Part shown: piece after piece, positions 3,438-63,682 of the stretch
How positions within the stretch are numbered: the stretch's first letter is position 1
How the letters are laid out: each line of letters begins with the position of its first letter
DNA from: Spirochaetia bacterium
Lineage (GTDB): Bacteria > Spirochaetota > Spirochaetia > DSM-2461
Length of the DNA stretch: 64,000 nt
NCBI GenBank assembly: GCA_963666985.2
Contig: CAXXIA010000002.1
Span: forward strand, 1,728,001-1,792,000
Direction of reading: 5' to 3'
Notes under the pieces: model-generated
Told to the model about the DNA's origin: nothing
What the model saw: only the letters and a program-made list of their open reading frames with translations
The model's database searches: none
Position numbers and translations under genes: made by a program

Positions 3438-5089
3438 GGGCGGAAGTTCATCTCCCTGGTCGGCTCACTGAGAGCTTCATAGTATTGCGGTCTTCCGTTT
3501 TCCGTCGGAGAACCTTCGTTCCAGGCGGCCCTAACGGAGGTATAAATAACTTGATCGCCGTGGACATCGGGCCAGGAAAAGTCCGGCCGTTCTCCCGGGG
3601 CGTATCGGCGTTTGGGTACCCAAGCCATTCCATGAAGGGTATCGTCTTCGTCCGTGGGAACATAGTCCCCGGGACGGGGTCCCCAGGAAACCCACCACCC
3701 GGCAACCTCTTCCTCGGAATCGGGGCTCCAGGACATCCGAAGACCGCTGTCGTCCTGTTCTTTGCGCAGATCGCCGGGCGGCCGCGGAGGAAGGCGGGGA
3801 TCATACTCCATTTGAAGCGTAGAGAGGACCGGTGCGATATCTTCGCCGGGATCGGGATCGAGAACATACCCCAGTATAAAATATCGGCCTTTAAATTGGT
3901 CGTTCGCTTCCCAGCGGTACCAGCGGCCGAAACCCGTCGGATCGTCGGGTTCTTCGACCATTTTGAGTTCCGTCCATGAACCGCCGTTCCCGCCGGGATT
4001 CGGCATTTTAACCAGCCAGGTTTCTTCCCGTGTATCCACGGCTTTTGCGTAAAAGCGGACGCGTGAGGCTCCGGGCGCGTCGTATCGGGCCCGGACGGCC
4101 GAAAGTGATGAACCCGGATAACCCGAATCAACGGCTTGCGTTCGTCCGGCACCCGCCGATGCGGCCTCTTTGTCCGAATATCCTCCGGCGGGGGAACGGG
4201 CCGCGTAGGATGAGGCGATGCGGAATTCGTCGATGTATCCGGAGAACGACGGCGCCAGGTTAAGAGGTCCGTCCGAAAGTCTTCCGATTTTCGGCGAGAA
4301 CGGTTCGGCGCCTTCGCGGCCGTTCGGTGTGGCATGAACCATATCCGTCGGTACGCCGTCGACCAAGTATTCCAGAAGTCCCGGCGAGGCGCCGGAGCGG
4401 CCCGGATGGGCGCTTCCGCGTTTGAACCGAATGCGGTGATGACGCCATTCTCCCGGAATAAGCGGTGAGGAAACTACTGTCAGAGTCAGTGAGCGGTCCG
4501 TATCATGACGGAAGAAATTGCGGAAGGTCCAGATGAGACGGCGGTTTTCAACACGGGCGACGACGCTTTGGACTTCGCCGTTTTCACTTCGTCCCTGCCA
4601 GGAAAAAAAGACTTCACCGTCGCTCAGAGTGACCGGACGGAGTCGGAAATCCAGGGTGAAGTCGCCCCATTCCCGTCCCGGCGCCCAGAACGCGCTTTCC
4701 GCGGGATAGAGACGGATTCCGCCCGCGCCGGGACGAATTGAGGTTTCGCCGCGGGCCGGAAAGAGATCGGAGACCGACCATTGTCCCTCTATGCGGTAAT
4801 GACCGGCGGGATTTTCAATTCCTTCCGATTCGGCCAGAAGCAGCAGATCGATGTCTTCGGGGCTGATATCACCTTCGAGAACGATGTTTGAAAGAAAAGG
4901 ATTGCGGCCCAGGGGAGAAAGGGTCAGAGCGCGCCGCCCCTTCCATCCGTCGGTTTCTCTAAGCCCCTCGGAAACGGTTTGCTCCCAGCCGGCTTCCGCT
5001 CCGTAGGTAACGGTTTCCAGAGCACCGGTTCCGAAGCTGACCGCGACCATAAGCATAAGAAAGGGAATTTTCATGATTTTGCTTTTCAT
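3434..5089 (-). CDS. Secreted hypothetical protein, possible LamG/concanavalin-like and FN3-like domains
   Basis: 551-aa ORF with signal peptide; DFTLDF, GEWRH and FSGYIDEFRI motifs; overlaps the start of the TPR gene. Confidence 0.6.
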   Translation of the reverse strand: MKSKIMKIPFLMLMVAVSFGTGALETVTYGAEAGWEQTVSEGLRETDGWKGRRALTLSPLGRNPFLSNIVLEGDISPEDIDLLLLAESEGIENPAGHYRIEGQWSVSDLFPARGETSIRPGAGGIRLYPAESAFWAPGREWGDFTLDFRLRPVTLSDGEVFFSWQGRSENGEVQSVVARVENRRLIWTFRNFFRHDTDRSLTLTVVSSPLIPGEWRHHRIRFKRGSAHPGRSGASPGLLEYLVDGVPTDMVHATPNGREGAEPFSPKIGRLSDGPLNLAPSFSGYIDEFRIASSYAARSPAGGYSDKEAASAGAGRTQAVDSGYPGSSLSAVRARYDAPGASRVRFYAKAVDTREETWLVKMPNPGGNGGSWTELKMVEEPDDPTGFGRWYRWEANDQFKGRYFILGYVLDPDPGEDIAPVLSTLQMEYDPRLPPRPPGDLRKEQDDSGLRMSWSPDSEEEVAGWWVSWGPRPGDYVPTDEDDTLHGMAWVPKRRYAPGERPDFSWPDVHGDQVIYTSVRAAWNEGSPTENGRPQYYEALSEPTREMNFRP

Positions 5090-48899: not shown

Positions 48900-48951
48900 T
48901 TAAAGGTCTTTAATCCGACTTCGTCTTTCATCCTGTATTATCTTATTTTGG

Positions 48952-49073
48952 GATTATTTCCTTATCACGAATAATAGTGGGTCTTTTGGCCCATTTCTTC
49001 CGATTAATTCCTTATTACGAACAAATTGAAGCACTTTGATGAAAGCCGCTTCCGATTAATTCCTTAAAGCGAA
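48952..49073. repeat. Three 20-bp direct repeats GATTAWTTCCTTAWHRCGAA
   Basis: Copies at 48952-48971, 49002-49021 and 49054-49073 (spacing 50 and 52 bp). Confidence 0.8.
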
Positions 49074-49132
49074 TTCGCATTATATCTTTATAGCTGTATG
49101 AAGCTTGATAATCCTTCATTATTAATTTTTTA

Positions 49133-49966
49133 TCACGAATTCGTATCATCCAACGGGGATCTGACTTGCTTCAAGATTTCATCAGTCATATGCGTATACA
49201 TCATTGTTGTTTTCAGGTTTGAATGGCCCAACTGGCTTTGAATAACCCGAACGTCTGTTCCTCGTTCCAATAGATGTGTGGCAAAAGAATGCCTTAATGT
49301 ATGACAGGAAGCTTTTTTTCTTATCCCTACGTGTCCTTTGGCCTTTTCGAAAGCGGCCTGTACTGATCTAATTTGATATCTTCGTCCGCTTCTGGTTGTA
49401 AAAAGCGGGTCCTTTCCGTTTCTTTCTCCGATGATTGAGGATAATTCAGGGATTAATGTATGTGGGAGAACGACATAACGATCCTTTGCTCCCTTTCCAC
49501 GCTTAACATGAATCCGTCCATATTCTAAATCAAGATCACCAATATTAAGAGCAACTAATTCACCGACCCGCAGACCTGATCCGTATAATAGTGCAAGCAT
49601 GAGCCGATGCTTCCTGTTGTTAACAGCGTCCAGTAGTTTTACAACTTCTGTTGGGGTTAAAACGGCCGGTAAGGATCTAGATCGCTTTCTTCGAAGAGAA
49701 AAAACTTCTAGCGGCATCCTTAAGTAATCATGATAAAAGAATTTAAGTGCAGCAAATGCCATTTCACGACTTGCCTCTTTATCTTCAAAAGACTCAAGAA
49801 AATACCGAACTTTTTCTTCTCTCCCTAAATTCCGTCGAGATATTGTAAACTCAAGATAACGGGACAACATTTGTGTATAAGCCTTAATTGTCCGCTCAGA
49901 ATAGCCCCTAATCACAAGTTCTCTTTTATAGTTGTTGATAAGTGATTCCTTGGATATGATCTTCAT
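49133..49966 (-). CDS. Tyrosine recombinase, putative cassette integrase (atypical: no IntI-specific insertion)
   Basis: GLRVGE, GKGAKDR, HTLRHSFATHLL, LGH, TMMYTH; N-terminal RGYSERTIKAY. Confidence 0.92.
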   Translation of the reverse strand: MKIISKESLINNYKRELVIRGYSERTIKAYTQMLSRYLEFTISRRNLGREEKVRYFLESFEDKEASREMAFAALKFFYHDYLRMPLEVFSLRRKRSRSLPAVLTPTEVVKLLDAVNNRKHRLMLALLYGSGLRVGELVALNIGDLDLEYGRIHVKRGKGAKDRYVVLPHTLIPELSSIIGERNGKDPLFTTRSGRRYQIRSVQAAFEKAKGHVGIRKKASCHTLRHSFATHLLERGTDVRVIQSQLGHSNLKTTMMYTHMTDEILKQVRSPLDDTNS

Positions 49967-49968
49967 AT

Positions 49969-50060
49969 GCGTTATAACGCTTTGTTAGCTCATTTTTCTT
50001 GATAAGAGACTAATTAAAAGATGATTAATGTATCGAGTTAGCATCTATGATGAGTTATAA
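49969..50060 (+). other. attI-like site; core GTTATAA at 50054-50060
   Basis: GTTATAAGCCATTTT is the reverse complement of the end of cassette 1 (51201-51215), and no attC precedes it; GAGTTA is repeated at 50035 and 50052. Confidence 0.75.
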
Positions 50061-50268
50061 GCCATTTTTCTGTATAGATTTATATGTAACAAATAAGAAT
50101 AACAAATAGCGCCAGATGGATTATTCGCAAAAGGAGAACGCGCGATAGCTATAAGGCGGTCCTTGAAGTATACTAAGTATACAGAAATTGCTTCTCTTCA
50201 CACTTCATTTGGCATTTACTCTCTTCTGAGTTGAGGAGATTACGATTTTGAACAAAGGAGGAGTGAAA

Positions 50269-51162
50269 ATGAGGATCGGGACGTTCAATGTAGAGAATCT
50301 ATTTGCGAGGTATAGATTTAACAGCAACTTTGATCCGATTAATAGCGATGGATTTTCAATAAATAATCTTGCTTTTAGCATTAACGATGAAACTGCAAAA
50401 CAAATAACCGCAAAGGCAATACGAGAAGTAGATGCTGATATCTTAGCATTACAGGAAGTTGATAATCTAAAAGTTCTTGATCGATTTGTTTCAAGCTATC
50501 TTGCAAAAGAAAAGTATAAGCATCGGATATTGATTGATGCATTTGATCCAAGAAATATCGATGTTGCACTCATTTCTAGATATCCAATTAAGAATGTAAA
50601 AACTTATAGGTCTGAAAGAAATAGATCAAATACTGCGAGTCTTTTCTCAAGAGATTGTCTTGAGGTTGTGATTGATGCTGAAGGAAAAGAATTGACGGTA
50701 TATGTTAATCATTTCAAATCAATGTTAGGTGGTCGTGATAATACTTTTACTAGGAGAAAAGAACAAGTTGAAAAAGTTGCTGAAATTATAAAGGAAGCAT
50801 GGCAGATAAAGAACTACGAAGGCAACTATGCAGTAGTCGGTGATTTTAATGATTATTTAGAAGGCCGGACCTCGCTGACTGATTTGATTACACATCCAGG
50901 ATTGAAGAATGTCAGTGAACGTATTTTAGAATCAGAAAGATGGACTCACTTTTGGGCCGGTGGCAATGAATATAGACAATTAGATTTCATACTACTATCC
51001 CCTCAGTTGGCCGAAATAAATAATAATGCTCCAGACATAATGAGAATGGGGCTTCCTTATCGAGCCGAAAAATATTCTGGAGATCGGTTTGATTTCGTTG
51101 GAGAAAACACTCCAAAGGCGTCTGATCATTGTCCTATTGTCATGGATATAGAATTAGTTTAG
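50269..51162 (+). CDS. Cassette 1: endonuclease/exonuclease/phosphatase family protein
   Basis: TFNVENLF, LQEV, NHFKS, GDFND, LDFIL, SDHCP; SD GGAGG. Confidence 0.9.
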   Translation: MRIGTFNVENLFARYRFNSNFDPINSDGFSINNLAFSINDETAKQITAKAIREVDADILALQEVDNLKVLDRFVSSYLAKEKYKHRILIDAFDPRNIDVALISRYPIKNVKTYRSERNRSNTASLFSRDCLEVVIDAEGKELTVYVNHFKSMLGGRDNTFTRRKEQVEKVAEIIKEAWQIKNYEGNYAVVGDFNDYLEGRTSLTDLITHPGLKNVSERILESERWTHFWAGGNEYRQLDFILLSPQLAEINNNAPDIMRMGLPYRAEKYSGDRFDFVGENTPKASDHCPIVMDIELV

Positions 51163-51208
51163 ATCGTAAAAGGAATTAGGATAGGTAATACTACTCAGAC
51201 AAAATGGC

Positions 51209-51426
51209 TTATAACAGCTGTTGATGCGCTCCGGCCGCTAAAAGTGTTTAGCGGCCTCCGGGGCTTCGCCCAAATTTCGTTTTGGCATGGCGTCTTGCAG
51301 ATGCAGATCCAGAAGTGATGTGATACAGTCAAAGGCGAACATGGTGTTGCTGTAGAAGAGCAAGAGCACATGCCAACCGGCTTTCAGCCGGACACGAAAC
51401 GTTCGCATAACAGCGGGCCGTTAATT
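51209..51426 (+). repeat. attC-like site 1 (218 bp, type A)
   Basis: TTATAAC-AGCTGTTGATGCG...CGCATAACAGCGGGCC-GTTAATT. Confidence 0.9.
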
Positions 51427-51468
51427 GCAATATCGAGGACTCCGTTTTATAGAAAGGAGTTGAATGAC

Positions 51469-52203
51469 GTGAAAAACAAAATCTTGATCGCTTCAATAAT
51501 AGCAGTTCTATGTTTCCCTTTTGTGATCTATCTAACTAGATTTCCTGGACTATACTCTGCTAACTCGGTGGAATGGGGAATCTTCGGAACGTTTATTGGT
51601 GGACTACTATCATCAATTTTCGCTGGTTTGAGTTTTATTGTAGTCTTACTTGTATATTGGCGCTCAAATGAGGATAGAAAGAATCGAGAGTCGCGCGAAA
51701 CAGTTCTTAAACTGCTGGAAGAGCTAAGTAATAGATATAAGAAAATTGTGATTAGAATTGAAGATACTGCTCAGATCGGAGAAATGGTATTTTCCTATTT
51801 TAATAGTAGTGCTTTTCAGCTTTATAAATTGTACCAAGACTATCTTAAAAACAAAGAAAATGAAAACCTTAAGGGACAGGTTAAGGCGCAAGCCTTACAG
51901 ATGGTCTTCTCAATCAATACAATACGCGAGTATCTACGATTTGTTGTTCTTACTTATCGATACATTGTGAATAAGTCAATTGAGAAAGAATTTCTTTCAA
52001 TACTATCAGCAAGACTTACAGAACAAGAGATGATAGCTCTTTCTATTTTGTTGTATGACGAAATTGAAGCTGATGACAATTTGTTTAGCTATTTAAAGAA
52101 TATGAAATACGGACCAATCGAAGGCTATGCTGCAATCGGAAGAAGTCTTACAGATGCCTTAAAGCTGAATTCTCCGGAACTACCATCAAATTTGAGTTTA
52201 TGA
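51469..52203 (+). CDS. Cassette 2: membrane protein resembling putative abortive-infection (putAbiC-like) proteins
   Basis: Two TMs with WGIFGTFIGG; C-terminal ILSARLTEQE; GTG start after AAGGAG. Confidence 0.55.
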   Translation: MKNKILIASIIAVLCFPFVIYLTRFPGLYSANSVEWGIFGTFIGGLLSSIFAGLSFIVVLLVYWRSNEDRKNRESRETVLKLLEELSNRYKKIVIRIEDTAQIGEMVFSYFNSSAFQLYKLYQDYLKNKENENLKGQVKAQALQMVFSINTIREYLRFVVLTYRYIVNKSIEKEFLSILSARLTEQEMIALSILLYDEIEADDNLFSYLKNMKYGPIEGYAAIGRSLTDALKLNSPELPSNLSL

Positions 52204-52268
52204 TTAGGAATTATTGATTTACATGGAGAAGCGAGAATAATTGCTGGTTAGAAATGAAACGATACTGC

Positions 52269-52476
52269 AATTAACAGCTGTTGATGCGCTCCGGCCGCTA
52301 AAAGTGTTTAGCGGCCTCCGGGGCTTCGCCCAAATTTGCCTCTGTCATAGATTTTGCGAATGTCTGGCACTGTGGTAAGATGAGTTGCGGTTAGCGGTTG
52401 AGGTTGTGAAGAATCGCAAAATCTCCGCCAGTCGCTACGCGAACGGCAAACTTCGCATACCAGCGGACCGTTATTT
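52269..52476 (+). repeat. attC-like site 2 (208 bp, type B)
   Basis: AATTAAC-AGCTGTTGATGCG...CGCATACCAGCGGACC-GTTATTT. Confidence 0.9.
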
Positions 52477-52530
52477 GCAAGAATGAATGACGATTTCTCC
52501 TCGCCCATCCATGGGCTCGGTGGTTAGAAG

Positions 52531-53760
52531 ATGTCAAAATATAAGAAACGAGACAAATACCAGCAGCTATATGAGTTTTTAAAAGCAAAAGAAAGCAGAT
52601 CCGAGTCATTCACTGTTGAAGAAATAATAACCGCGACAGGTTATCAAGAAGGATCCGTAAAGGCATATATTCGAAACAAGCTCAATAATGTTTATCTATT
52701 CTTAATAGATGATAGTCACTATCAAGTTTCAGGAATTGCATCAAAGACACCTGATGATTTTGAATCGATTATGTCGCAAAAAAGCGATTTGGTTGTGTCA
52801 GACTCAGAAAGCCTATTTACAAGCCTTAGGGATCGTAGTCTTCAAGCGTTTTATACTGCAATATCTGTATATAACAATCCCTTGCATGAATATAGGATAG
52901 AATCCTTTTGTATTCTTTTATCAAATGCATGGGAACTTTTACTCAAGGCTAGAATTGTTCAACTGGAAGGTGAAGATAAAATATACAAATCAAAAGGGAA
53001 GACAATTTCGTTAACAGAAGCCTATCGTAAAGTCTTTCCACGTTCATCTGATCCTATTCACAAAAACTTAGAAACACTTACCGAGATTCGAGATTCAGCA
53101 GTACATCTACTTATTCCGGATATTCAACATTCTTTATCTCGTATATTTCAAGCTAGCATTTTTAATTTTCTTTCAAAGGTAAGAGAATACAAATATCCAA
53201 ATAAGTACCATAGCGATTTACCAGGTCTCTTATCTTTTGTTACAGATAAACAAGACGTTCCTGAAAATGTAATACGTCTAAAGTATGGAACCTATGCAAG
53301 TGGACTAATAAAAGAATTTATTGAAAAGAATACCTCACGCGAATCCGAAGTTTCCGATATGCGTTATTCAATACCAATCGACTACAAGGTAGTTCTGACA
53401 AAAAGTGAAAAGGAAGGAGATTTATCTATCCGTATAGATAAGGATGGAGAACCCGCCATACTGGTAGAAAAACCCAAGGATGTTAATAAAACGCATCCCT
53501 ATCTTCAGAAAAATGTAATAGAAGCCGTGAATCAAGGTCTCGATGATGTCGGTCGGTCTCAATACCATCTCAACCGATATTCGTTTCGTGGAGCTCTCGA
53601 AGTTGAAAAAGTTAGGAGAACACAATCCAATAAATTCTATCATTTATTAGAAAATCCGGAAGTTCATAAGTACTCACAAGCATTTATAGATCTTCTTCTC
53701 CACAAACTTTCAAACAGTGATAGTTACCTACAGTTGTGTAAAAAAGCTTTGAAAAAATAG
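52531..53760 (+). CDS. Cassette 3: DUF3644-like (HEPN-type) protein
   Basis: AISVYNNP..RIESFCILLSNAWELLLKA; Rx4H motif RDSAVH. Confidence 0.75.
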   Translation: MSKYKKRDKYQQLYEFLKAKESRSESFTVEEIITATGYQEGSVKAYIRNKLNNVYLFLIDDSHYQVSGIASKTPDDFESIMSQKSDLVVSDSESLFTSLRDRSLQAFYTAISVYNNPLHEYRIESFCILLSNAWELLLKARIVQLEGEDKIYKSKGKTISLTEAYRKVFPRSSDPIHKNLETLTEIRDSAVHLLIPDIQHSLSRIFQASIFNFLSKVREYKYPNKYHSDLPGLLSFVTDKQDVPENVIRLKYGTYASGLIKEFIEKNTSRESEVSDMRYSIPIDYKVVLTKSEKEGDLSIRIDKDGEPAILVEKPKDVNKTHPYLQKNVIEAVNQGLDDVGRSQYHLNRYSFRGALEVEKVRRTQSNKFYHLLENPEVHKYSQAFIDLLLHKLSNSDSYLQLCKKALKK

Positions 53761-53821
53761 AAGTGGCCTGAAAGTACATCCTTGTACTTTCAGGGAGACT
53801 TATCCATCTCGTCATTCCTGC

Positions 53822-54039
53822 AAATAACAGCTGTTGATGCGCTTCGAATACATTTGCAGGCAAATGTATTCTCCGGGCCTTCGGCCAAATTTCGTTTTGG
53901 CATGGCATCTTGCAGATGCGTTTTCGAAAGTGATGTGATACAGTCAAAGGAGAACATGGCATTGCGTTAGAAGGGCAAGAGCGCATGCCAACCGGCTTCG
54001 CCGGACACGAAACGTTCGCATAACAGCGGGCCGTTTGGC
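53822..54039 (+). repeat. attC-like site 3 (218 bp, type A, variant first hairpin)
   Basis: AAATAAC-AGCTG...CGCATAACAGCGGGCC-GTTTGGC. Confidence 0.9.
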
Positions 54040-54096
54040 GAAATCTGTTTTAGAAAAATATTTTTTTGCCTCACCTTCCATGGTTCGGCTTTGTTC

Positions 54097-54381
54097 TCAC
54101 CTGTAGGCGCTACTTCGGGGTTCGAGAGAAATAATACTGACAATTCTAACGGCGTCATCGATTACATAGAAAAGTCTATAGTTACCAATTCGATACCGCC
54201 ACGTTTCTGGTTTCCAGTCTTTCAACTTTTTGATGTTTTTTCCGAAATAGGGGTTTTTGCGTAATTGGTCGTAGACCATGCCTGAAATCTTTCTGTATTG
54301 TGATGAACTTCCATTCATTCGTAGCTTTTTTAGATCTTTAAGAAATTGATCCGTTTCAAAAATTTTAAATCGTTCAGACAA
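54097..54381 (-). CDS. Cassette 4: RelE/ParE family toxin
   Basis: F.KDLKKL..NPY..KKLK..WRYRIGNYRLFY..R..AYR. Confidence 0.9.
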   Translation of the reverse strand: MSERFKIFETDQFLKDLKKLRMNGSSSQYRKISGMVYDQLRKNPYFGKNIKKLKDWKPETWRYRIGNYRLFYVIDDAVRIVSIISLEPRSSAYR

Positions 54382-54613
54382 ATCGACCTCTACCGTTCTT
54401 AGCGTCTTTGGTTCCCTGCTTCATTCGTTTTAAAAGGCTTTCATCAGAGAGGATGCTTTCCATTTCGAAATCGTCGGCATATTCAACCTCTTCGATGTAT
54501 CTCATTGTTGCAGTCTCGATAAAATTTGAAATCGAACGATTCTCAGCATCGGCATGGACTTTTAAGGAATCGTAGAGTTCTTCATCAATTCGTAGAGAAA
54601 CAGTTTTGGTCAT
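54374..54613 (-). CDS. Cassette 4: ribbon-helix-helix antitoxin
   Basis: KTVSLRIDEE..NRSISNFI; acidic; overlaps the toxin start. Confidence 0.85.
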   Translation of the reverse strand: MTKTVSLRIDEELYDSLKVHADAENRSISNFIETATMRYIEEVEYADDFEMESILSDESLLKRMKQGTKDAKNGRGRFV

Positions 54614-54627
54614 ATCATTATCCCCTC

Positions 54628-54684
54628 TATGAATACATTGTATTCATATGTGTTTAAATTAGTTCATAGCGTTATTGAAGTCAA
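54628..54684 (-). promoter_or_regulatory. TA promoter (TTGACT-17-TAATTT) and operator palindrome
   Basis: -35 at 54679-54684; perfect IR TATGAATACA-T-TGTATTCATA at 54628-54648. Confidence 0.7.
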
Positions 54685-54755
54685 TAGGGCGATTTTAGAG
54701 GTCTCCCAAGTACATCCTTGTACTTGGAAGAGTGGTAAAACACCAAACAGACTTC

Positions 54756-55027
54756 GCCAAACAGCTGTTGATGCGCGGCGGCCGCTAATGGGATTAGCGG
54801 CCTTGGGCCGAGCGATGGAAAACCAAGAGCTTTTAAATTTCTGTTGAAGGGAAAAATCAAATTGGTTCGGCTCGGCCAAATTTCGCTTTGGCCATGGTTC
54901 TTGCAGATGCGTTTCTAAAAGTGGTGTGATAAGCTGAAGAGCGAACGGGCTTTCTGTTAAAGTGCAAGAACGCATGCCAACCGGCTTCGCCGGACGCGAA
55001 ACTTCGCATACCAGCGGAACGTTTAAC
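54756..55027 (+). repeat. attC-like site 4 (272 bp, type A with expanded second arm)
   Basis: GCCAAAC-AGCTG...CGCATACCAGCGGAAC-GTTTAAC. Confidence 0.88.
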
Positions 55028-55155
55028 GAAAAAATCAGAAGGCCTTTTCCATGCCGCCTTTCTTGGTGCCATGAATAGGAATATTCAATTTCCTAAAAGA
55101 ATTAATGGTAATAATGTATAGTTAGTAATCCTGTAGTGATAACGAAGAGTAGAAA

Positions 55156-55860
55156 ATGGAAAACATAATCAAAATACTCGGTGAGCATCCAACTGCTGTT
55201 ATTGCAGATGCTGCTTTTAAGATTGGAGCAACAGTTCGTCTTCTTCCTTCAAATCTATACTCTCTTAAGCCAGATGCACGATTAATCGGTAAAGTTACAA
55301 CCGTTAAATGCAATAACGATTTGGTCTCTATTCTCGAGGGGCTTATGCGTGCAGAGAGTGGAGATGTTTTACTAATCGACAATAATGGTTTCTCAGGGGC
55401 AGGTTGTATCGGAGATGTCATCGTTTCGGAAGCTGTTCGTAAGAAAATCTCTGGGATTGTTGTCTATGGATCCATTAGAGATAGCCAGCAAATCTCTACG
55501 ATGGAAATTTCTGTGTTCTGTACTGGAAAATGTTCTGTTGGGCCATTGAAGCTACCTGGGCAGCAGTCGAAAAATGGTCTTGTTAACGTAGTCTTGGAAA
55601 TAGAGGGAACTTCTATAAAACCTGGAGATATTCTTATTGGCGATGTTGATGGTGTAATTGTTGTAGAAACCGATCGCCTTGATGAAATTATTAGCAAAGC
55701 AGAAGAAATTGAACATAAAGAAGAGACTTTAATGAAAAGAATCGAGTCAGGAGAAAGTCTTACAGACATATTTGGGGTTAAGAAGTTCTTAGAGAAAAGA
55801 GAAGGGGATCCAGAGTATTTATTCAATTCTCATTTGGCAGAACAGAATGAAACGATTTGA
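55156..55860 (+). CDS. Cassette 5: RraA family/HMG aldolase-like protein
   Basis: T..IADA, GDVLLID, GCIGD, GSIRDS, PGDILIGDVDGVIVV. Confidence 0.88.
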   Translation: MENIIKILGEHPTAVIADAAFKIGATVRLLPSNLYSLKPDARLIGKVTTVKCNNDLVSILEGLMRAESGDVLLIDNNGFSGAGCIGDVIVSEAVRKKISGIVVYGSIRDSQQISTMEISVFCTGKCSVGPLKLPGQQSKNGLVNVVLEIEGTSIKPGDILIGDVDGVIVVETDRLDEIISKAEEIEHKEETLMKRIESGESLTDIFGVKKFLEKREGDPEYLFNSHLAEQNETI

Positions 55861-55931
55861 TTCAGTGAAAGGTGAGCCAATAAGTGATTAGATAGAGGTA
55901 TTTTCTATTTGGCATTTTTAGGGATTTCTTC

Positions 55932-56208
55932 GTTAAACAGCTGTTGATGCGCGTCGGCCGCTAAAGGTGTTTAGCGGCCTTGGGCCGAGCGATGGGTATT
56001 GGTTAAGTTTTATTATTTTTGAAGAAGAAGAGAAAATCAGATTGAATCGGCTCGGCCAAATTTCGCTTTGTCATGGCTCTTGCAGATGCGTTTCCGAAAG
56101 TGATGTGATACCATCAAAGGCGAACAATGAATTGCTGTAGAAGAGCAAGAGCGCATGCCAACCGGCTTCGCCGGCCGCGAAACTTCGCATACCAGCGGGC
56201 CGTTAAAG
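55932..56208 (+). repeat. attC-like site 5 (277 bp, type A with expanded second arm)
   Basis: GTTAAAC-AGCTG...CGCATACCAGCGGGCC-GTTAAAG. Confidence 0.88.
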
Positions 56209-57047
56209 GAAATTCGGACGACGGAATAAAAAAGGTCTCTTTTTTGAGGGTTTTTTTCTGTGGCAGCCTCATTCCCTTCATTTGAACAAGTAACAAAAAC
56301 AGAATCCCTTTGAGTGTTCAGATTTTTTTAACAGGCCTTCCTTCTCTTTGAACGAAACAGGTCGTTTTCATACGGCTTTCTCCTCACCCCCCTCGCCTTT
56401 GAGATCATCTTCAAGAAAGAAACCAAAAGCATCGGAATAAAACTCGCTTCGGGATCAGAAGCACTTAGTGATAAGGCGGTCGGTTCGGGAGAACTTGTGT
56501 CGTGAAGGTTTATGGTTTTTAACGATTATGGGAATCGCTCATGAGAAAATCCTTATCCGTTGATGGCTATCGCTTCGGGAAATGAGGCGCTTCCGGTTTG
56601 ATCGGTTCGCGAGAAAAGGGGTGGTAGCCTGAGAAGAATGAAGGGATGGAGATGAGAAGAATGGAGATTGTTTTCTCCGTAGTTTTGCCTTTGAGAATAA
56701 GGCTGAATGCTTTAAGAGAATACCGGTGTAGAAGGAGAAGACGAACATTCGGATTTACAGAATCCGTCCTGAGAGAAAGAGGTCGGGAAAGGCGAATTGC
56801 ATCGGATGAAGGCCTGAGTAAAGTGATGAGGCGATGAAAGGGAGAATAGGGGTCAGTACGAGAGAATGGATAGAAATTCCGTTAAATGAGTAAAAAGCGG
56901 AAGAGGGAAGTCTGTAAAAGGATGAATGAAGAAAAGATGAGAAGGAGAAGGGCAAGAAGAATCGAAACAAAGGGTCCGGCAAAACGGCGAGGAGGGGTGA
57001 GGAGAAGGAGAGGTCTTTATAGATGCGTCGTCCGAACTTCCTTTAAC
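56202..57047. other. Cassette 6: apparently non-coding cassette
   Basis: Ends are complementary over 21/22 nt; only unconvincing ORFs of 75 aa or less. Confidence 0.7.
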
Positions 57048-57248
57048 AGCTGTTGATGCGCTTCGGCCGCTAAAGGTGTTTAGCGGCCTGCGGGGCTTCG
57101 CCCAAATTTGCCTCTGTCATAGATTTTGCTTAAGTCTGTCGCTATGGTAAGATGAGTTGTAGTTAGCGGTTGATGTTGTGAAGATTCGCAAAATCTCCGC
57201 CAGTCGCTACGCGAACGGCAAACTTCGCATACCAGCGGGCCGTTATGT
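57041..57248 (+). repeat. attC-like site 6 (208 bp, type B)
   Basis: CTTTAAC-AGCTG...CGCATACCAGCGGGCC-GTTATGT. Confidence 0.9.
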
Positions 57249-57298
57249 GCTTTTTCGTTTTTCCAGTTAATAACATTAATTGCCATAAGGAGGGAGAA

Positions 57299-57751
57299 AT
57301 GGGCATCAATTATCAATTAAAAGCAGAAAAAGGCAAAATCGAAGATGAATTAAATTCCGCAATTAACAGGCTTATTTCTGGCTGCGAAAAGCTTGATATG
57401 GCTTTAGCTTTCGAAATCTTCTCAGATTCATCTGAGTTCTTGATGATGGGAACGGATGGAAGCCTTTGTGATTATCAGACTTACTTGAAAAACAATATCG
57501 ACTATTTATCCGGTTGTGAAAGTTTTAAGTTGATAACGTTTGATCGAAAAATACGAATCATAAACAGTGAGGTAGCCATCTTTTCATGGGCTTATGGGGT
57601 TGAGGCAAAATTAAGAACGGGAGATATTGATATTATTGATAATGCAGGAGCTTCTTTTGTCTTCCGAAAAATAGAGAATACATGGAAGGTTGTATATTAT
57701 CATGAGTCATCAGTACCTCCGAAAAGAAACTCTCCACCAAGAGAATCATGA
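57299..57751 (+). CDS. Cassette 7a: NTF2/SnoaL-like protein
   Basis: C-terminal SFVFRK..WKVVYYHES; SD GGAGG before ATG 57299. Confidence 0.75.
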   Translation: MGINYQLKAEKGKIEDELNSAINRLISGCEKLDMALAFEIFSDSSEFLMMGTDGSLCDYQTYLKNNIDYLSGCESFKLITFDRKIRIINSEVAIFSWAYGVEAKLRTGDIDIIDNAGASFVFRKIENTWKVVYYHESSVPPKRNSPPRES

Positions 57752-57845
57752 CGATTGAAATCCAAGTGTAAATAAGGGATTACACAGAACGTCGCGCAAG
57801 TATCGCTTTCTGTTGCTGTTTATAGTTATGTCGGAATCAGAATAT

Positions 57846-58334
57846 ATGGAAAATAAAATAGTAATAGATAAAAAAATCCAGCCGGGCGATTTGGGCTCTA
57901 TAGTGGAATTGCATGGCAAATATTACAGCAAGCATTTTGGCTATAACATAACCTTTGAACCATATGTTGCTTTACCTCTTGCGAAGTTTATACTTCGGGC
58001 CAGTGAGAATGAACAGATTTGGATAGTTCGACAAAACGGAATCGTTCGGGGGAGTATCGCTATTGCGAAGAAGAAAGCAAAAACTGCGCAGTTGAGATGG
58101 TTTATCCTTGATGGAAGTCTCCAAGGAAAAGGCATTGGAAATCAACTAATGAGATTCTCTATTGATTTTGCAAGAGAAAAAGGATTTTACAAGCTGATTC
58201 TCTGGACGGTAAGGGATCTAAAAAGTGCGATTCATCTGTACGAAAAGAATCTTTTTTTGCTTAAGAAAGAAGTTTCCCACAAGATTTGGGGGGTGGAATT
58301 GACGGAACAACTCTATGAATTGAAGTTGAAATAG
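57846..58334 (+). CDS. Cassette 7b: GNAT acetyltransferase
   Basis: AQLRWF..QGKGIG, LWTV..AIHLYEK. Confidence 0.88.
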   Translation: MENKIVIDKKIQPGDLGSIVELHGKYYSKHFGYNITFEPYVALPLAKFILRASENEQIWIVRQNGIVRGSIAIAKKKAKTAQLRWFILDGSLQGKGIGNQLMRFSIDFAREKGFYKLILWTVRDLKSAIHLYEKNLFLLKKEVSHKIWGVELTEQLYELKLK

Positions 58335-58400
58335 GGTTAATTCCGAATACTCTGTTTAAGAAGATGAACTCTCAATAAAGATAGATATGAGGGAAAAAGC

Positions 58401-58609
58401 ACATAACAGCTGTTGATGCGCTCCGGCCGCTAAATAGTGTTTAGCGGCCTTCGGGGCTTCGCCCAAATTTGCCTCTGTCACAGATTTTGCGAATGTCTGG
58501 TGTTGTGGTAAGATGATTTGCAGTTGACGGTTAATGTTGTGAAGAATCGCAAAATCTCTGCCAGTCGCTGCGCGAACGGCAAACTTCGCATACCAGCGGG
58601 CCGTTAAGT
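58401..58609 (+). repeat. attC-like site 7 (209 bp, type B)
   Basis: ACATAAC-AGCTG...CGCATACCAGCGGGCC-GTTAAGT. Confidence 0.9.
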
Positions 58610-58841
58610 GTATTATTGGAGGCATTTTGAAGAAATTATGGATTCTGTTTCTTTTTCCATTTCTTCTGGGATGTGTGACTCGTGCAGATGAAAAGTATAA
58701 AGGAACTATCTACGATCCTGGTATTGAGGAACCCATATCGTTGCATCCCTTTTACTTCTCACATGCACTTGCAGAGGCAATTTGGAATTCCCAGCTTTTG
58801 ATAGACACTGCTAAACTCAAAATGAGGAAGGAGTGTACATC

Positions 58842-59129
58842 ATGGGAAGTCCGCGATATTCGGACGAATTCAAGGCAGAAGCAGTCGGCCAGGTTGTTGA
58901 GCGGGGCTACTCCATCAAGGAAGTCTCTGAGCGTATAGGAGTCTCAACCCATAGCCTCTATAAGTGGCTGAAGGCCGATTCTCGAAATCCAAAAGCACCA
59001 GAATCGGCAAAAGCAAATAAGGAGCTTGAAGTCGAGAATGCCAGGCTGAAAGCAGAGCTGCGGCGGGTGCAGGAAGAGCGAGATATCTTAAAAAAAGCCG
59101 CGGCATACTTCGCGAGTCAGTCCGAGTAA
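58842..59129 (+). CDS. IS3-family transposase OrfA
   Basis: RYSDEFKAEAV..HTH..EERDILKKAAAYFA. Confidence 0.92.
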   Translation: MGSPRYSDEFKAEAVGQVVERGYSIKEVSERIGVSTHSLYKWLKADSRNPKAPESAKANKELEVENARLKAELRRVQEERDILKKAAAYFASQSE

Positions 59130-59167
59130 GATATGCCTTCATCAAAAACTACAGGGCTGAATTCAGA

Positions 59168-59986
59168 GTGAAGACTATGTGCCGGGTTCTCGATGTCAAT
59201 CGAAGCGGATTCTATGCATGGTTGAGAAAACCTCAATCAGAGAGAAAGATTGAAGACATTCGGTTGTTGAAGAAGATTCGCCACTTCTACGAAGAAAGCG
59301 ATCAGGTCTACGGAAGTCCACGAATCCATGAGGATTTGATGGAAGACGGAGAATCCTGCAGCGTCCATCGAGTAGCCAGAATCATGCGAGAGCATGGTAT
59401 CAGGGCGATGGTCGGCTTCAAGATGCGTCGATTCAAGTATGGAAAACCGTCCCAGGCTGCCCCGAACCATCTCCAGCAGGACTTTAATGTAGAAGAACCC
59501 GATACTGCGTGGACAACGGATATTACCTATATTCGAACTCATGAAGGTTGGCTGTATCTCGCAGTTGTCATGGATCTTTATTCCAGGAGAATCATCGGCT
59601 GGTCCATGCAGAACACGCTTCATCGTGATCTGGTTATCCAGGCCTTACTGACAGCTGTTTGGAAGAGACGCCCGAAAAACAAAGTCCTTATCCATTCCGA
59701 TCAGGGCGGCCAATTTGACAGCGGTGACTGGATTAGATTCTGTCGTGACAACGGACTGAAGAGAAGTATGAGCCGTCGTGGAAACTGCTGGGACAATGCA
59801 GCCATGGAATCATTCTTTGGTAGTTTGAAGAAGGAACGGATTCGCCGGAAGACATATCGAACAAGGGATGAAGCACGGTCTGATGTGTTCGATTATATTG
59901 AAGCATTTTACAACCGGAAGCGTCGCCACAAGCATCTTGGCGGGATCTCTCCGGTTGAATTTGAAAAGGGTTCTATTGCAAGCTAG
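59168..59986 (+). CDS. IS3-family transposase OrfB (DDE)
   Basis: YGSPRI, WTTDITYI, HSDQG, DNAAMESFF. Confidence 0.94.
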   Translation: MKTMCRVLDVNRSGFYAWLRKPQSERKIEDIRLLKKIRHFYEESDQVYGSPRIHEDLMEDGESCSVHRVARIMREHGIRAMVGFKMRRFKYGKPSQAAPNHLQQDFNVEEPDTAWTTDITYIRTHEGWLYLAVVMDLYSRRIIGWSMQNTLHRDLVIQALLTAVWKRRPKNKVLIHSDQGGQFDSGDWIRFCRDNGLKRSMSRRGNCWDNAAMESFFGSLKKERIRRKTYRTRDEARSDVFDYIEAFYNRKRRHKHLGGISPVEFEKGSIAS

Positions 59987-60335
59987 AGGTGTCTATAGAA
60001 GTCTGGGAATTCCAATTCATCTTAATTTCAATTTTCCAGATGCGTTTACTACGAAAGATATTGCTGAGTTGTATGGAAGACTCTACTATCACGCGCAGAA
60101 TGTTGAGGGTGTAACTATCCAAATAGATTCATACCCAGAAAAGCGAAGTCTTTTTATTAATATGAAACCAATTGTAATAGAAAACTATAGGCAATTTGGT
60201 AAAAGAGATAAGCTTGAATCACTTGGATACTTCTTTTGGTTCAATGTTGAGCAAGATCGCACACTAAAAGGAAAATATGTACCAGTGAACCACCCCGGCT
60301 TTACCGGAGGCACAATTACTTGAGAGGATTGTGTC

Positions 60336-60656
60336 ATGGGAAAGCAAACAAGGTACCCCAAGGAAGTCCGGGAACAATCTGTCCGGATGGTGTTTGAGAA
60401 GCAGAAGGACAGCGAATCTCAGTGGTCGGCGATTTGTTCAATATCCGCTAAGATCGGCTGTACACCCGAAACACTCCGGAAATGGGTTCGGCAGGCAGAA
60501 ATCGATGAAGGGCAGCGGGATGGTCTAACCAGTGAAGAGCGTAAGCGTCTTAAAGAGCTGGAAAAGGAGAATCGAGAACTTCGTACTGCCAACGAAATTC
60601 TTCGAAAGGCCTCAGCGTATTTTGCCCAGGCGGAGCTCGACCGCCGAAAGAACTGA
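60336..60656 (+). CDS. IS3-family transposase OrfA
   Basis: KIGCTPETLRKWVRQAE..ANEILRKASAYFAQAELDR. Confidence 0.93.
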   Translation: MGKQTRYPKEVREQSVRMVFEKQKDSESQWSAICSISAKIGCTPETLRKWVRQAEIDEGQRDGLTSEERKRLKELEKENRELRTANEILRKASAYFAQAELDRRKN

Positions 60657-61567
60657 TGGTCGGTTTTATCAATGAGAACCGGGAAGAATATGGAGTCGAG
60701 CCTATCTGCAAATCACTGCCGATTGCTCCGTCGACCTATCATCTACAAAAAGCAAGAGAAGCTGATCCTGAACTCGAACCTGATCGAACACGTCGAGACC
60801 GGTTTCTTAAAAATGAGATTCAGGAGATATGGGATGAGAACCGTAGAGTCTACGGCGCCAGGAAAGTCTGGAAGGTTCTTAGAAATGAGAAGCATCTCCA
60901 TGTAGCCAGGTGTACCGTCGAACGTCTTATGCGTTCTATGGGTCTCAGAGGCGTCATTCGGGGCAAGGGAACCAAGACCACCTTCCCGTCACCGAAAGAT
61001 GAAAGACCCGAGGATCTGGTTAACAGAGATTTCACAGCTTCCAAGCCGAATCGGCTTTGGGTTGCGGATTTCACCTACGTTTCCACCTGGCAGGGCTTCG
61101 TCTATGTTGCCTTCATCATTGATGTCTTCTCCCGGATGATCGTCGGTTGGCGAGCTAGCCGGTCGATGAAAACCGACTTTACTCTTGATGCGCTCAATCA
61201 GGCGCTTTGGGCCAGGGAAGTAGTCGACGGTCTGATTCATCACAGTGATCGTGGAAGGCAGTATCTTTCGTTTCGATATTCGGATCGATTGACAGAGGCC
61301 GGTATCGAGCCTTCGGTTGGGAGCAAAGGAGACTCGTACGATAACGCAATGGCTGAGACTATCAACGGTCTCTACAAAGCCGAAGTCATCCACCGGAGGA
61401 GCTCATGGCAGAGAATAGAACAGGTTGAATTGGAAACCCTGGACTGGGTGGACTGGTACAACAACCGCCGAATCATGGAGCCGCTTGGAGATATCCCCCC
61501 GGCGAAGTTTGAATCGATGTATTATGAACAGGAAGAATGTTCGGCAGTAGCTGCCGGACTCAACTAA
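60656..61567 (+). CDS. IS3-family transposase OrfB (DDE)
   Basis: YGARKVW, WVADFTYV, HHSDRG, DNAMAETING. Confidence 0.94.
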   Translation: MVGFINENREEYGVEPICKSLPIAPSTYHLQKAREADPELEPDRTRRDRFLKNEIQEIWDENRRVYGARKVWKVLRNEKHLHVARCTVERLMRSMGLRGVIRGKGTKTTFPSPKDERPEDLVNRDFTASKPNRLWVADFTYVSTWQGFVYVAFIIDVFSRMIVGWRASRSMKTDFTLDALNQALWAREVVDGLIHHSDRGRQYLSFRYSDRLTEAGIEPSVGSKGDSYDNAMAETINGLYKAEVIHRRSSWQRIEQVELETLDWVDWYNNRRIMEPLGDIPPAKFESMYYEQEECSAVAAGLN

Positions 61568-62067
61568 AACAGCCTCCGGGAATCCCGGTGTGGTTCACAG
61601 AGATGTTTGCCCGAACAAATGTGATGACGGCAAATACTTCCTGCTATACGTATAAGTATTTAGAATCAGGTTCACTGTATCGGTATCGGTCTAATGTTGA
61701 TTATACGATTACTGAGTGGAATGACGATATGTTGAATGCTGAGAATTGCATATTTGATGGAATCCCCAATAATAATGAACTTGCTCTTAAGTATATAGCA
61801 ACCGCAATTAAAAGAGCTGAGGAGATACCGGAGTTACAAAGAGGAAGATATCTGTATATTGTTTTGTACGGTAAACTTCTAGAATGTGAGTATAATATTT
61901 TGGTTGGACAATTCGATGAAGCTAGAGAATTACTAGAAGAATCTATTCTTACATTTGAGGAAAATAGTGAAATTATACGCTATAAGGAAGTTATAAAAAA
62001 CTGTATTGAACACGCTGAGATCGTGTTATTGCTAACAGAATTTCTAATGCCATATTATCAATAATAC

Positions 62068-62279
62068 ACTTAACAGCTGTTGATGCGCTCCGGCCGCTAA
62101 AGGTGTTTAGCGGCCTTCGGGGCTCCGCCCAAATTTCGTTTTGGCGATGGCTCTTGCAGATGCGTTTTTAGAAGTTGTGTGATAAGTTGAAGAGCGAACA
62201 GGCTTTCTGCTAAAAGCAAGAGCACATGCCAACCGGCTACGCCGGACACGAAACTTCGCATACCAGCGGGCCGTTAGGT
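62068..62279 (+). repeat. attC-like site 8 (212 bp, type A)
   Basis: ACTTAAC-AGCTG...CGCATACCAGCGGGCC-GTTAGGT. Confidence 0.9.
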
Positions 62280-62319
62280 GATTTGCAAATGAGATACAAT
62301 TAGATCAAAGGAGAGCGCC

Positions 62320-63456
62320 TTGGGCCCTGTAGTACTTCTGGATAAGTCTACCTACCAATGCCTCAGTTCTGATGAACTACTTTGTCTAGAAAGATACTAT
62401 TTCCTCAATTTGCCTCCAATACTCCTTTACGAAATAATTACAGATCTATCGAAAAAGTCTGGAAGAGATTCAGAAGAAGTTACTTCACGGCTTGCTGCAA
62501 AATTCACTCAAATGAGTAGTTACGCTAACGATGAGTATCGGATAGTACTCCGTTTATCACTTCTTGGAAGGCCGGTGCCAATGACACGTCAGGTTCTCAT
62601 TGCCGGTGGAGAGAAAATCAAAGACGAAGAAGGGAAGGTCGGGATTTTTCTAGATGAACCTCCTGAATTTAAGGCATTACGAGAATGGGAGAATAAAAAC
62701 TTTTCAGAGTTTGATAGAATCTTTGCAACAGCATTCAGAAAGTATAAAGATAGCTTCGATTTCGAATTGATTACGAAGAAAGATTCAGACTTCAAAAAAA
62801 TATGGAGCGAAGTCAATTCACTGGAAGATGCCCATGATAGCGCTGTTTTACATATTGATAACAAAGAGAATACAGCTCAGATGCTTGAATGGGCTATGTC
62901 GAGTATCAATCTCTCAAGCTTAGAGAAAAGTGCGGTTCGCAAACTGTGGAGTGTTAAAGGAAAACCGAATCTTTCTGACTTCTCACCTTATGCAAGATTT
63001 TGCATGATTGCGTCATTAACAGCGTTCATAGGAATCAGTAAAGGACTATTAGGCTCTAGGTCTTCAAACATGATAGATCTCGAATACCTTTATTATTTAC
63101 CTTTTTGCTCCATTTTTTCTTCAAATGACAAATTTCAACTACAACTAGCACCATTATTGATTGGAGATGATCAATACATCGTTTCGGGTGATGTTCTCAA
63201 AGATGATTTAGCAAAAATAATCACATATTTCTCAGGATTCACGAAAGAAGATCATGTTGCTTATCGAAAGCATAGAGGCAGCCACCCTCCTGAAATCGCA
63301 GACTCGTTTACTTTGAGTGTATGGGAGACGCTATGCTCGCCAGTAGATCCAGAGGCAGAAGAAAGGTTACAGAACACCCCACATGACGAGATTCTGAAGA
63401 AGATAAAGCCAATACTGGAAGCAATTAAGAAGCAAGAACAGAATCGGGGAAACTAG
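62320..63456 (+). CDS. Cassette 9: hypothetical protein, possible PIN-like nuclease
   Basis: N-terminal VLLDKS; later D..YL.YLPFC.IFSSND; SD AAGGAG, TTG start. Confidence 0.6.
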   Translation: MGPVVLLDKSTYQCLSSDELLCLERYYFLNLPPILLYEIITDLSKKSGRDSEEVTSRLAAKFTQMSSYANDEYRIVLRLSLLGRPVPMTRQVLIAGGEKIKDEEGKVGIFLDEPPEFKALREWENKNFSEFDRIFATAFRKYKDSFDFELITKKDSDFKKIWSEVNSLEDAHDSAVLHIDNKENTAQMLEWAMSSINLSSLEKSAVRKLWSVKGKPNLSDFSPYARFCMIASLTAFIGISKGLLGSRSSNMIDLEYLYYLPFCSIFSSNDKFQLQLAPLLIGDDQYIVSGDVLKDDLAKIITYFSGFTKEDHVAYRKHRGSHPPEIADSFTLSVWETLCSPVDPEAEERLQNTPHDEILKKIKPILEAIKKQEQNRGN

Positions 63457-63473
63457 TTAAATACGAGCAAATC

Positions 63474-63682
63474 ACCTAACAGCTGTTGATGCGCTCCGGC
63501 GTCAACTTGCGTTGCCGCCTCCGGGGCTTCGCCCAAATTTGCCTCTGTCATAGATTTTGCGGAAGGCTGGCGGCTGTGATAGGATGGCTTTCAGTAATCG
63601 GCCGATGTTGTTCTGTCTGGCAAAATCTACACCAGTCGCCTTCGGCGAACGGCAAACTTCGCATAACAGCAGAACGTTTAAT
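63474..63682 (+). repeat. attC-like site 9 (209 bp, type B, variant first hairpin)
   Basis: ACCTAAC-AGCTG...CGCATAACAGCAGAAC-GTTTAAT. Confidence 0.88.

Follow-up and report, generated by a model that had tools for sequence, protein, structure and literature searches.

The window analysed here is a stretch of 64,000 nucleotides from a Spirochaetia bacterium (genome G000, contig C2, positions 1,728,001-1,792,000) that carries the first nine cassettes (C1 to C9) of a gene-cassette array together with the tyrosine recombinase gene beside it. The system works like an integron, yet it fails two defining tests, as its recombinase has no I2 insert and its recombination sites do not have the attC architecture. 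Cassette starts are complementary to their own ends over about 14-16 bases, about twice the pairing length of classical integrons. Our results suggest, with a probability that we put at roughly 65%, that this terminal stem serves as the outer arm, about 13 bp long, to which the I2-less recombinase of an integron-like system binds at the cassette recombination site. This reading, which is drawn from sequence data, relies on the edge of the pairing plateau, an invariant G at position 7, the mirroring of the same marks on an inner arm, and the association of these features with I2-less enzymes. The combination of such a recombinase with paired, wobble-marked ends indicates a possible second route of gene-cassette shuffling.

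Pairing of cassette ends

Each cassette start, taken from the G↓TT crossover, was aligned with the reverse complement of its own end. Counted from the G, the terminal matches reported in the original prediction were all reproduced: 15/15 in C1 (plus four more past a bulge), 15/16 in C2, 16/17 in C3, 17/18 in C4, 15/16 in C5, 21/22 in C6, 15/15 in C7, 16/16 in C8 and 14/14 in C9. The cassettes are listed below, with stem lengths counted from the TT; ORF denotes an open reading frame and IS an insertion sequence.

50055-51214, + strand: C1, exo/endonuclease/phosphatase gene; 50055-50068 pairs with 51201-51214 in a wobble-free stem; a copy is found at unit 75 of the array
51421-52274, + strand: C2; 15-nt stem with A 51430 opposite C 52265 (bottom-strand G·T)
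52471-53827, + strand: C3, DUF3644 gene; 16-nt stem, wobble 52480/53818
54034-54761, + strand: C4, RHH antitoxin and RelE/ParE toxin genes on the - strand; 17-nt stem, wobble 54043/54752
55022-55937, + strand: C5, RraA-like/aldolase gene; 15-nt stem, wobble 55031/55928
56203-57046, + strand: C6, 844 bp, no ORF above 75 aa; 21-nt stem, wobble 56212/57037
57243-58406, + strand: C7, SnoaL-like and GNAT genes; 14-nt perfect stem
58604-62073, + strand: C8; 15-nt perfect stem, intact despite two internal IS3-family elements (about 58782-60015 and 60285-61598)
62274-63479, + strand: C9, 378-aa ORF without family match; 13-nt perfect stem

The pairing well past the 7-bp core that had been noted in the window extends over the whole array, in which 85 start-to-end pairs (units hereafter, 64 of them distinct) were delimited by motif search over 158 kb; three att sites of a shorter type, located in gaps, stand outside this count. 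Stem lengths were measured by an X-drop rule scoring a bottom-strand G·T as half a pair. The median stem is 16 nt and 59 of the 64 distinct units reach at least 13 nt; between non-cognate starts and ends the median is 3. In the distinct units, the paired fraction stays at 0.91-1.0 up to position 13 and decays after it. Across the 85 units, matching amounts to 93-99% at positions 3-9 and 11-13, 82% at position 14 and 73% at position 15, and comes close to background by about position 18-22. Tails of 17-28 nt are found in many units, with extremes of 21-28 nt in this array and 22-24 nt in that of the relative G016. The paired bases at positions 3-14 of the distinct units sum to 730, a value equalled in none of 10,000 shuffles of ends against starts (maximum 482). 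Stem positions other than the marked ones described below vary freely and covary, which shows that about 13 bp must pair and that most of their bases are free. Moreover, the ORFs of the window end well short of the stems, so that coding does not explain them.

The stem sequences had also been described as unique to each cassette. This is correct inside the window and does not hold for the whole array, in which the 85 units have 59 distinct 13-nt starts. Shared starts belong mostly to copies of one cassette, and cassettes 11, 42, 66 and 73 combine a common start with unrelated bodies. The dispersed copies support the earlier view that the units move as discrete cassettes. Four of the 85 units (48, 55, 60 and 85), which were kept in the counts, have no start/end match; they look like chimeras, and the IS that each contains suggests IS-mediated deletion or recombination between IS copies. 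In unit 85, one cassette's start is fused to a C6-type body.

A preferred wobble and an invariant G

The single mismatch of C2-C6 always falls at position 10 from the crossover TT, where the start has A and the reverse-complemented end has G. On the bottom strand this A/G pair is a G·T wobble, on the top strand an A·C mismatch; it is present in 51 of the 85 units, and the match rate at position 10 is only 38%. At position 7, the end strand has G in all 85 units, and the three mismatches found there are also A/G. Position 3 of the starts is A in 46 units and T in the other 39. The original prediction read the system as an ordinary integron and overlooked both the position-10 wobble and the absence of I2 from the recombinase.

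A role of the wobble in strand selection through stability was considered and rejected, as 48 junctions with the wobble and 29 with a Watson-Crick pair behave alike: the bottom strand is more stable than the top strand by 2.5 and 2.4 kcal/mol, respectively, so that the wobble contributes no strand bias in the folding model.

Putative recombination sites of the array

Nine att-like repeats of 200-269 nt, each running from AAC to GTT, separate the cassettes of the window, and a putative attI-like site precedes C1.

50037-50068, + strand: putative attI-like site; left arm 50037-50048 with G at arm position 7, 6-bp spacer 50049-50054, G↓TT at 50054/50055, right arm formed by the C1 start
51213-51422, + strand: att repeat 1, 210 nt; AAC and 1 nt, then an inner stem (one extra base), a branched core, the inner arm, and 5 nt before GTT
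52273-52472, + strand: att repeat 2, 200 nt; bottom-strand fold of -46 kcal/mol, z -4.7
53826-54035, + strand: att repeat 3, 210 nt
54760-55023, + strand: att repeat 4, 264 nt
55936-56204, + strand: att repeat 5, 269 nt
57045-57244, + strand: att repeat 6, 200 nt
58405-58605, + strand: att repeat 7, 201 nt
62072-62275, + strand: att repeat 8, 204 nt
63478-63678, + strand: att repeat 9, 201 nt; the array continues to about position 1,935,900 of contig C2

The fold of these repeats is unlike that of attC, for which the description in the available part of PMC7439510 served as reference: one nucleotide follows AAC and five precede GTT, leaving a bulge of about 4 nt on the strand that is cleaved in integrons. 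Read from the spacer, the inner arm has G at position 7 in 79/79 distinct cores and G at position 10 in 69/79, and this G10 is paired with T in 63/79 folds. Therefore, the two arms share the same marks: a G kept at position 7 and a preferred G·T at position 10 of the bottom strand.

The attI-like crossover lies 88 nt from the start of the recombinase gene and has no hairpin. Two arms of about 11 bp and a 6-bp spacer fit this site, which looks like a double-stranded arm-6 bp-arm site; the outer arm of a cassette site needs folding. In a list of 37 first sites of relatives, read by eye and including att sites and chance pairs, 15 sites combine the arm G7 with a spacer of 6 bp and 11 with one of 7 bp, and neither arrangement is seen in the remaining 11.

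Searches against Rfam left the att repeat unmatched, the sole match being an ALIL element inside an IS3. Many att sites of both kinds escaped a generic hairpin scan, and detection was therefore based on motifs. A shorter att type, of 129-148 nt and without the extra base, coexists with the main one in the same array at positions 1,830,944-1,831,072, 1,920,104-1,920,233 and 1,926,866-1,927,013 of contig C2.

A recombinase without I2

49133-49966, - strand: 277-aa tyrosine recombinase, divergent from the array; related to IntI, with neither the I2 insert nor an N-terminal extension

This recombinase adjoins the array with its six catalytic residues (R133, K158, H222, R225, H248 and Y257) intact, all of them invariant among 23 homologues. 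Its closest PDB match is the integron integrase IntI4 (2A3V, E 7e-46), compared with which it lacks 43 residues, I2 among them, having 22 residues in the I2 helix region where IntI4 has 65. Its only Pfam matches are PF13495 and PF00589. With the integrase model TIGR02249 it scores 220 bits in two stretches, below the cut-off of 265, and no gene of the host genome exceeds this cut-off. It passes NF040815 (224.6 against a threshold of 220) and falls well short of the XerC and XerD models (TIGR02224, 169 < 335; TIGR02225, 166 < 330); separate Xer-like genes are present in the host genome.

In a quick tree of 96 proteins, which supports the I2 clade but neither the root nor the order of events, 22 I2-bearing integrases are found on one side of a branch with a support of 100, and the window protein is placed outside. 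Its nearest neighbours are the recombinases of G079, L147, G015 and G016, all adjoining wobble-marked cassettes; those of G016, G015 and G079 (265-266 aa) are minimal like that of the window and leave no space for an extra N-terminal domain, so that stem-and-wobble arrays do not require such a domain. I2 touches an extrahelical G of attC in trans (PMC3053210, available part), and it is held to underlie single-stranded recombination by integrases in the accessible text of PMC7790495. It also serves as a filter for calling IntI, and integrases without it have been discarded in screens (PMC9176274, part available).

The dif sites of Xer recombinases have an arm-6 bp-arm layout. The likeness of the window system to Xer-type enzymes (XerC/D, archaeal XerA, NF040815) lies in the absence of I2, a size of about 280 aa, the NF040815 match and a similar layout at the putative insertion site. 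In contrast to Xer/dif, the enzyme heads a cassette array, the arm sequence is largely free and one arm of the cassette site is formed only in folded single-stranded DNA. By PDB score, the enzyme is also nearer to IntI4 than to XerA. Just 3' of the recombinase gene, at 48947-49140, lies a group of three or four direct repeats, each 20-25 nt long, at a spacing of 50-66 nt.

Comparison with classical integrons

The same stem measure was applied to 139 distinct units of classical integrons, comprising 45 from Vibrio, 78 from IntI arrays of the host's phylum and 16 from class 1 integrons. The VCR array of Vibrio sp. HDW18 (NZ_CP049914.1) has a median stem of 9, with 2 of its 45 units reaching 13. 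The class 1 cassettes have a median of 8, and 3/16 reach 13 when wobbles are counted; some of them have 10-12 perfect pairs. This sample derives from 26 gene rows, of which 18 were used, giving 16 distinct units; two duplicates were left out, as were three rows in which attC is interrupted or truncated and three in which the cassette start was untraceable behind a qacE-derived fragment. The arrays of the same phylum headed by IntI with I2 (7 loci in 6 genomes) have a median of 7, with 3 of 78 units reaching 13. In all, stems of at least 13 occur in 8/139 classical units, and the A/G pair at position 10 in 0/139, being absent from each of the three sets. Pairing in these units drops after position 7. 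The tabulation of the full array against Vibrio and class 1 cassettes that had been proposed gives medians of 16 against 9 and 8. Equally long extensions, which would have spoken against a special feature, are not routine in classical integrons (medians of 7-9), even though an extension past 7 bp is routine there.

The resemblance to integrons (class 1; Vibrio VCR arrays with VchIntIA/IntI4, PDB 2A3V) is nevertheless extensive. It includes tandem cassettes in which every gene is followed by a hairpin repeat, the G↓TT crossover with AAC at the inverse end, a start complementary to the cassette's own end, a bottom strand that is usually the better folder (67/79 circles here), a divergent recombinase, a putative attI-like site, and toxin-antitoxin as well as ORF-less cassettes. 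The 85 units over 158 kb are bounded by G↓TT and AAC, with most genes in one direction. In contrast to integrons, the pairing plateau extends to position 13 instead of 7, with a fixed G·T at position 10 and an invariant G7. The attC architecture, with RYYYAAC/GTTRRRY boxes, a 5+5/6 spacer and two extrahelical bases, was not found: the att repeats have a branched core flanked by 1 nt and 5 nt, and one extra base, compared with none in 42/65 cores of relatives and two in attC.

The IntI arrays of the same phylum (G272, G207, G197, G302, G308 and G287) are large chromosomal cassette arrays with the same crossover as here. They differ in their canonical attC with a 5+5 spacer and two extra bases, their short stems and the absence of the wobble (0/78), and their integrases pass TIGR02249 and group in the I2 clade, unlike the enzyme of the window. 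These arrays are oriented as intI itself, a "reverse" layout that is reported for Spirochaetota in the available part of PMC9668308 and that suggests a spirochaete host. In six IntI loci of the phylum (L118-L122 and L126), the 7-nt core is very often followed by GAC and a small CCTTCGG-type hairpin.

The literature searched, which excluded most subscription papers, early attC papers and supplements, contained no publication that describes I2-less arrays or cassette ends that are long or wobble-marked. The accessible part of PMC8876359 gives only the standard account of a 7-bp core.

Folding of the circle and of the array

The expectation that the excised circle gains a long cassette-specific stem is supported by folding predictions: the bottom-strand junction of the circle is 10.2 kcal/mol more stable than that of the array, and the probability that the crossover TT/AA is paired is 0.97 in the circle and 0.39 in the array (79 junctions). 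In Vibrio, the advantage of the circle is 3.0 kcal/mol, with the crossover paired at 0.75 and 0.32 (45 junctions). This advantage raises the question of how cassettes leave the array. The 11 shortest distinct units were folded in their array form, and in nine of them the stem is predicted to close across the cassette body with a probability above 0.5; such cross-body folds are equilibrium predictions for mostly more than 1 kb of DNA. The same stem may thus help excision when it closes across the body, in which case the earlier proposal that it favours re-integration over excision may be wrong. In run X3, one contig runs along the recombinase side and departs at 50047, just before the crossover, which is a weak hint of a different first cassette.

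Relatives in three phyla

Among 401 sampled genomes of the phylum, 54 contain homologues of the recombinase. Terminal inverted repeats were searched for in a position-neutral way in these and further loci. The A/G pair at position 10 was recovered in 20/20 same-phylum loci fetched around homologue matches (10 of which are unclassed by the motif rule, so that the absence of I2 there is judged from match length), in 23/70 loci classed as I2-less and in 0/21 loci with an I2 integrase; in flanks of IntI arrays it was seen once each in 2/20. The positive I2-less loci include Winogradskyella, Aquiflexum, Alkalitalea and a Bacillota metagenome-assembled genome, so that stem and wobble accompany I2-less recombinases in the host's phylum, Bacteroidota and Bacillota. 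In this search, A/G at position 10 is the commonest mismatch (58, the next having 16), and A lies at the 5' side of the gene in 48/52 pairs.

Six loci of relatives, picked after the inner-arm results were seen, had att sites that could be located by inner motifs; their median stem is 17 and the wobble is present in 30/35. Among the att cores of relatives, 63/65 have a bulge of 2-4 nt and 42/65 have no extra base, which fits the lack of I2, as I2 contacts the extrahelical G in IntI. In the six same-family relatives, arrays were seen only in G016 and G015, the loci of G017, G020, G023 and G027 lying at contig ends or having no visible array. The Persicobacter locus L030 showed no clear array, and a metagenome scan yielded two loci in which no array was recognised on reading. 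Many array-linked I2-less recombinases at L060-L079 and L158-L175 are proteins of 340-680 aa with N-terminal extensions, and others are minimal and divergent like that of the window; in the Bacteroidota loci of this set, the array follows the recombinase gene in the same direction.

Possible mechanism and alternative explanations

Under the outer-arm reading, the recombinase would bind two pseudo-symmetric arms of 11-13 bp, as Xer-type enzymes do, with the cassette's own ends supplying the outer arm once the single-stranded circle is folded. G7 and the G10·T wobble could then serve as reading marks in place of the extrahelical-base and I2 contacts of IntI. More speculatively, if the bottom strand of a whole unit became single-stranded, its own ends might pair across the body and bring the two att cores into a four-way junction, which the recombinase could resolve at the two AA↓C steps into a circle and a shortened array.

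Several observations weigh against this reading. The wobble is optional, since position 10 is Watson-Crick in 32/85 units, and its lack of effect on the bottom-over-top stability leaves its role unexplained. Stems often extend past 13 bp, more than a binding arm needs. In the relatives, 47/70 I2-less loci, many of them on short contigs, have no wobble pair, and G10 at the window's register is present in only 9/65 inner arms, where the motif is apparently shifted by 1-2 nt as judged by eye. Pairing across the cassette is also predicted in 13/28 Vibrio units, and no cassette circle junction was found among the joints listed from public contigs, which are mostly at repeats and IS copies.

Stems that exceed any footprint leave room for templated copying. 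In this explanation, the ends of a circle, about 200 nt apart, fold together, and template switching, hairpin repair or the making of the cassette copies one end from the other, the length beyond a short functional core being a by-product. The tails of 17-28 nt agree with it, and so do cassettes 5, 10, 11, 12, 22, 38, 44 and 66, whose related starts, attached to unrelated bodies, differ at several stem positions, each mirrored at the end; the 59 distinct starts would also be hard to reach by stepwise compensatory change alone. Copying should, however, erase mismatches, yet the A/G pair persists in 51/85 units and across phyla; the fixed plateau edge at position 13-14, the invariance of G7 and the matching marks on the inner arm also count against it. 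We regard templated synthesis as an unlikely main cause of the match, and copying may act alongside arm binding rather than replace it. A purely thermodynamic ratchet, in which the stabilised circle hairpin lets integration outrun excision without any protein reading the stem, seems less probable again. The stability of the circle junction and its paired crossover are what such a ratchet predicts, and adjacent cassettes are matched to no greater extent than random ones (6.5 against 6.6 of 12, p 0.62). Stability alone nevertheless leaves the invariant G7, the weaker G·T at one position and the inner-arm marks unexplained, the stem is also able to form in the array, and the many dispersed copies show that cassettes leave and return.

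Single-stranded IMEX phages are recombined by the host XerC/XerD at dif-like folded sites. A similar scheme, with the adjoining recombinase as an accessory, would account for the arm-6 bp-arm layout with G7, which appears to resemble dif arms, and for the other Xer-like recombinases encoded in the host genome. It is very improbable given that an intact recombinase with six catalytic residues is found beside the array both in the window and in relatives from three phyla, that its best structural relative by sequence is IntI4, and that the crossover is the G↓TT of integrons. We give just as little credence to the view that this is an ordinary integron whose R-box complementarity simply lies at the upper end of the usual range. 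Classical cassettes do pair past the core, as seen in the Vibrio median of 9 and in the class 1 cassettes with 10-12 perfect pairs or with stems of at least 13, but the proportion of long stems (59/64 against 8/139), the fixed wobble, the missing I2 and the 1+5 nt geometry in place of 5+5/6 largely refute this interpretation for the sets examined.

Implications

In the current model, integrases reached single-stranded recombination by gaining I2, and intermediates are lacking (PMC7790495, as far as available). An active-looking array of 85 cassettes with an I2-less enzyme and its own conserved site code makes this model directly testable with a single gene and a pair of short sites, and the stem-plus-wobble rule provides a simple detector of such arrays, given its occurrence in I2-less and IntI loci (23/70 and 0/21).

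The origin of new cassettes is an open question for integrons. Matched, cassette-specific ends of at least 14 nt constrain how new cassettes can be made. A wider interpretation, which we offer tentatively and consider somewhat doubtful, is that of a widespread second class of gene-cassette platform in the host's phylum, Bacteroidota and Bacillota, invisible to IntI/attC finders. A minimal I2-less recombinase would read the long, G·T-marked, self-paired arms of folded single-stranded sites, the terminal stem would pre-assemble the four-way excision junction, and the 14-25-nt ends would be the trace of a templated step in the making of cassettes. Such a platform could be a living stand-in for the stage before the gain of I2.

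Other features of the array

The toxin-antitoxin genes of C4 (54097-54613) lie in reverse orientation, as in the superintegrons of Vibrio. The second half of C6 is purine-rich on the + strand, and the terminal inverted repeat of this cassette extends to about 42 nt at 79%; at least five copies of C6 are present in the array, in addition to IS-broken ones.

An IS of 1,343 bp encoding a 394-aa transposase, IS481-like by reading, is inserted in units 14, 23, 27, 36, 43, 48, 54, 57 and 85 (e.g., at 1,838,818-1,840,160 of contig C2) and has three further genomic copies. In all nine array insertions it starts at position 25 or 26 after the crossover TT. This position just outside the stem suggests targeting by a site-bound protein or by the structure of the site.

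Units 13, 16, 30, 32, 62, 69, 70 and 76 are near-identical cassettes of 240-243 bp with a 17-nt wobble stem, and unit 48 has a similar start; their att, longer than usual, measures about 260 nt where detected. Being too short for a usual gene, they are possibly promoter or small-RNA cassettes. A similar short leader lies 30-40 nt inside the starts of C3 (about 52499-52520) and of a G016 cassette (about 4790-4812 of locus L019), and a pattern search for the C3-type leader found a clear match in only one unit of the host array.

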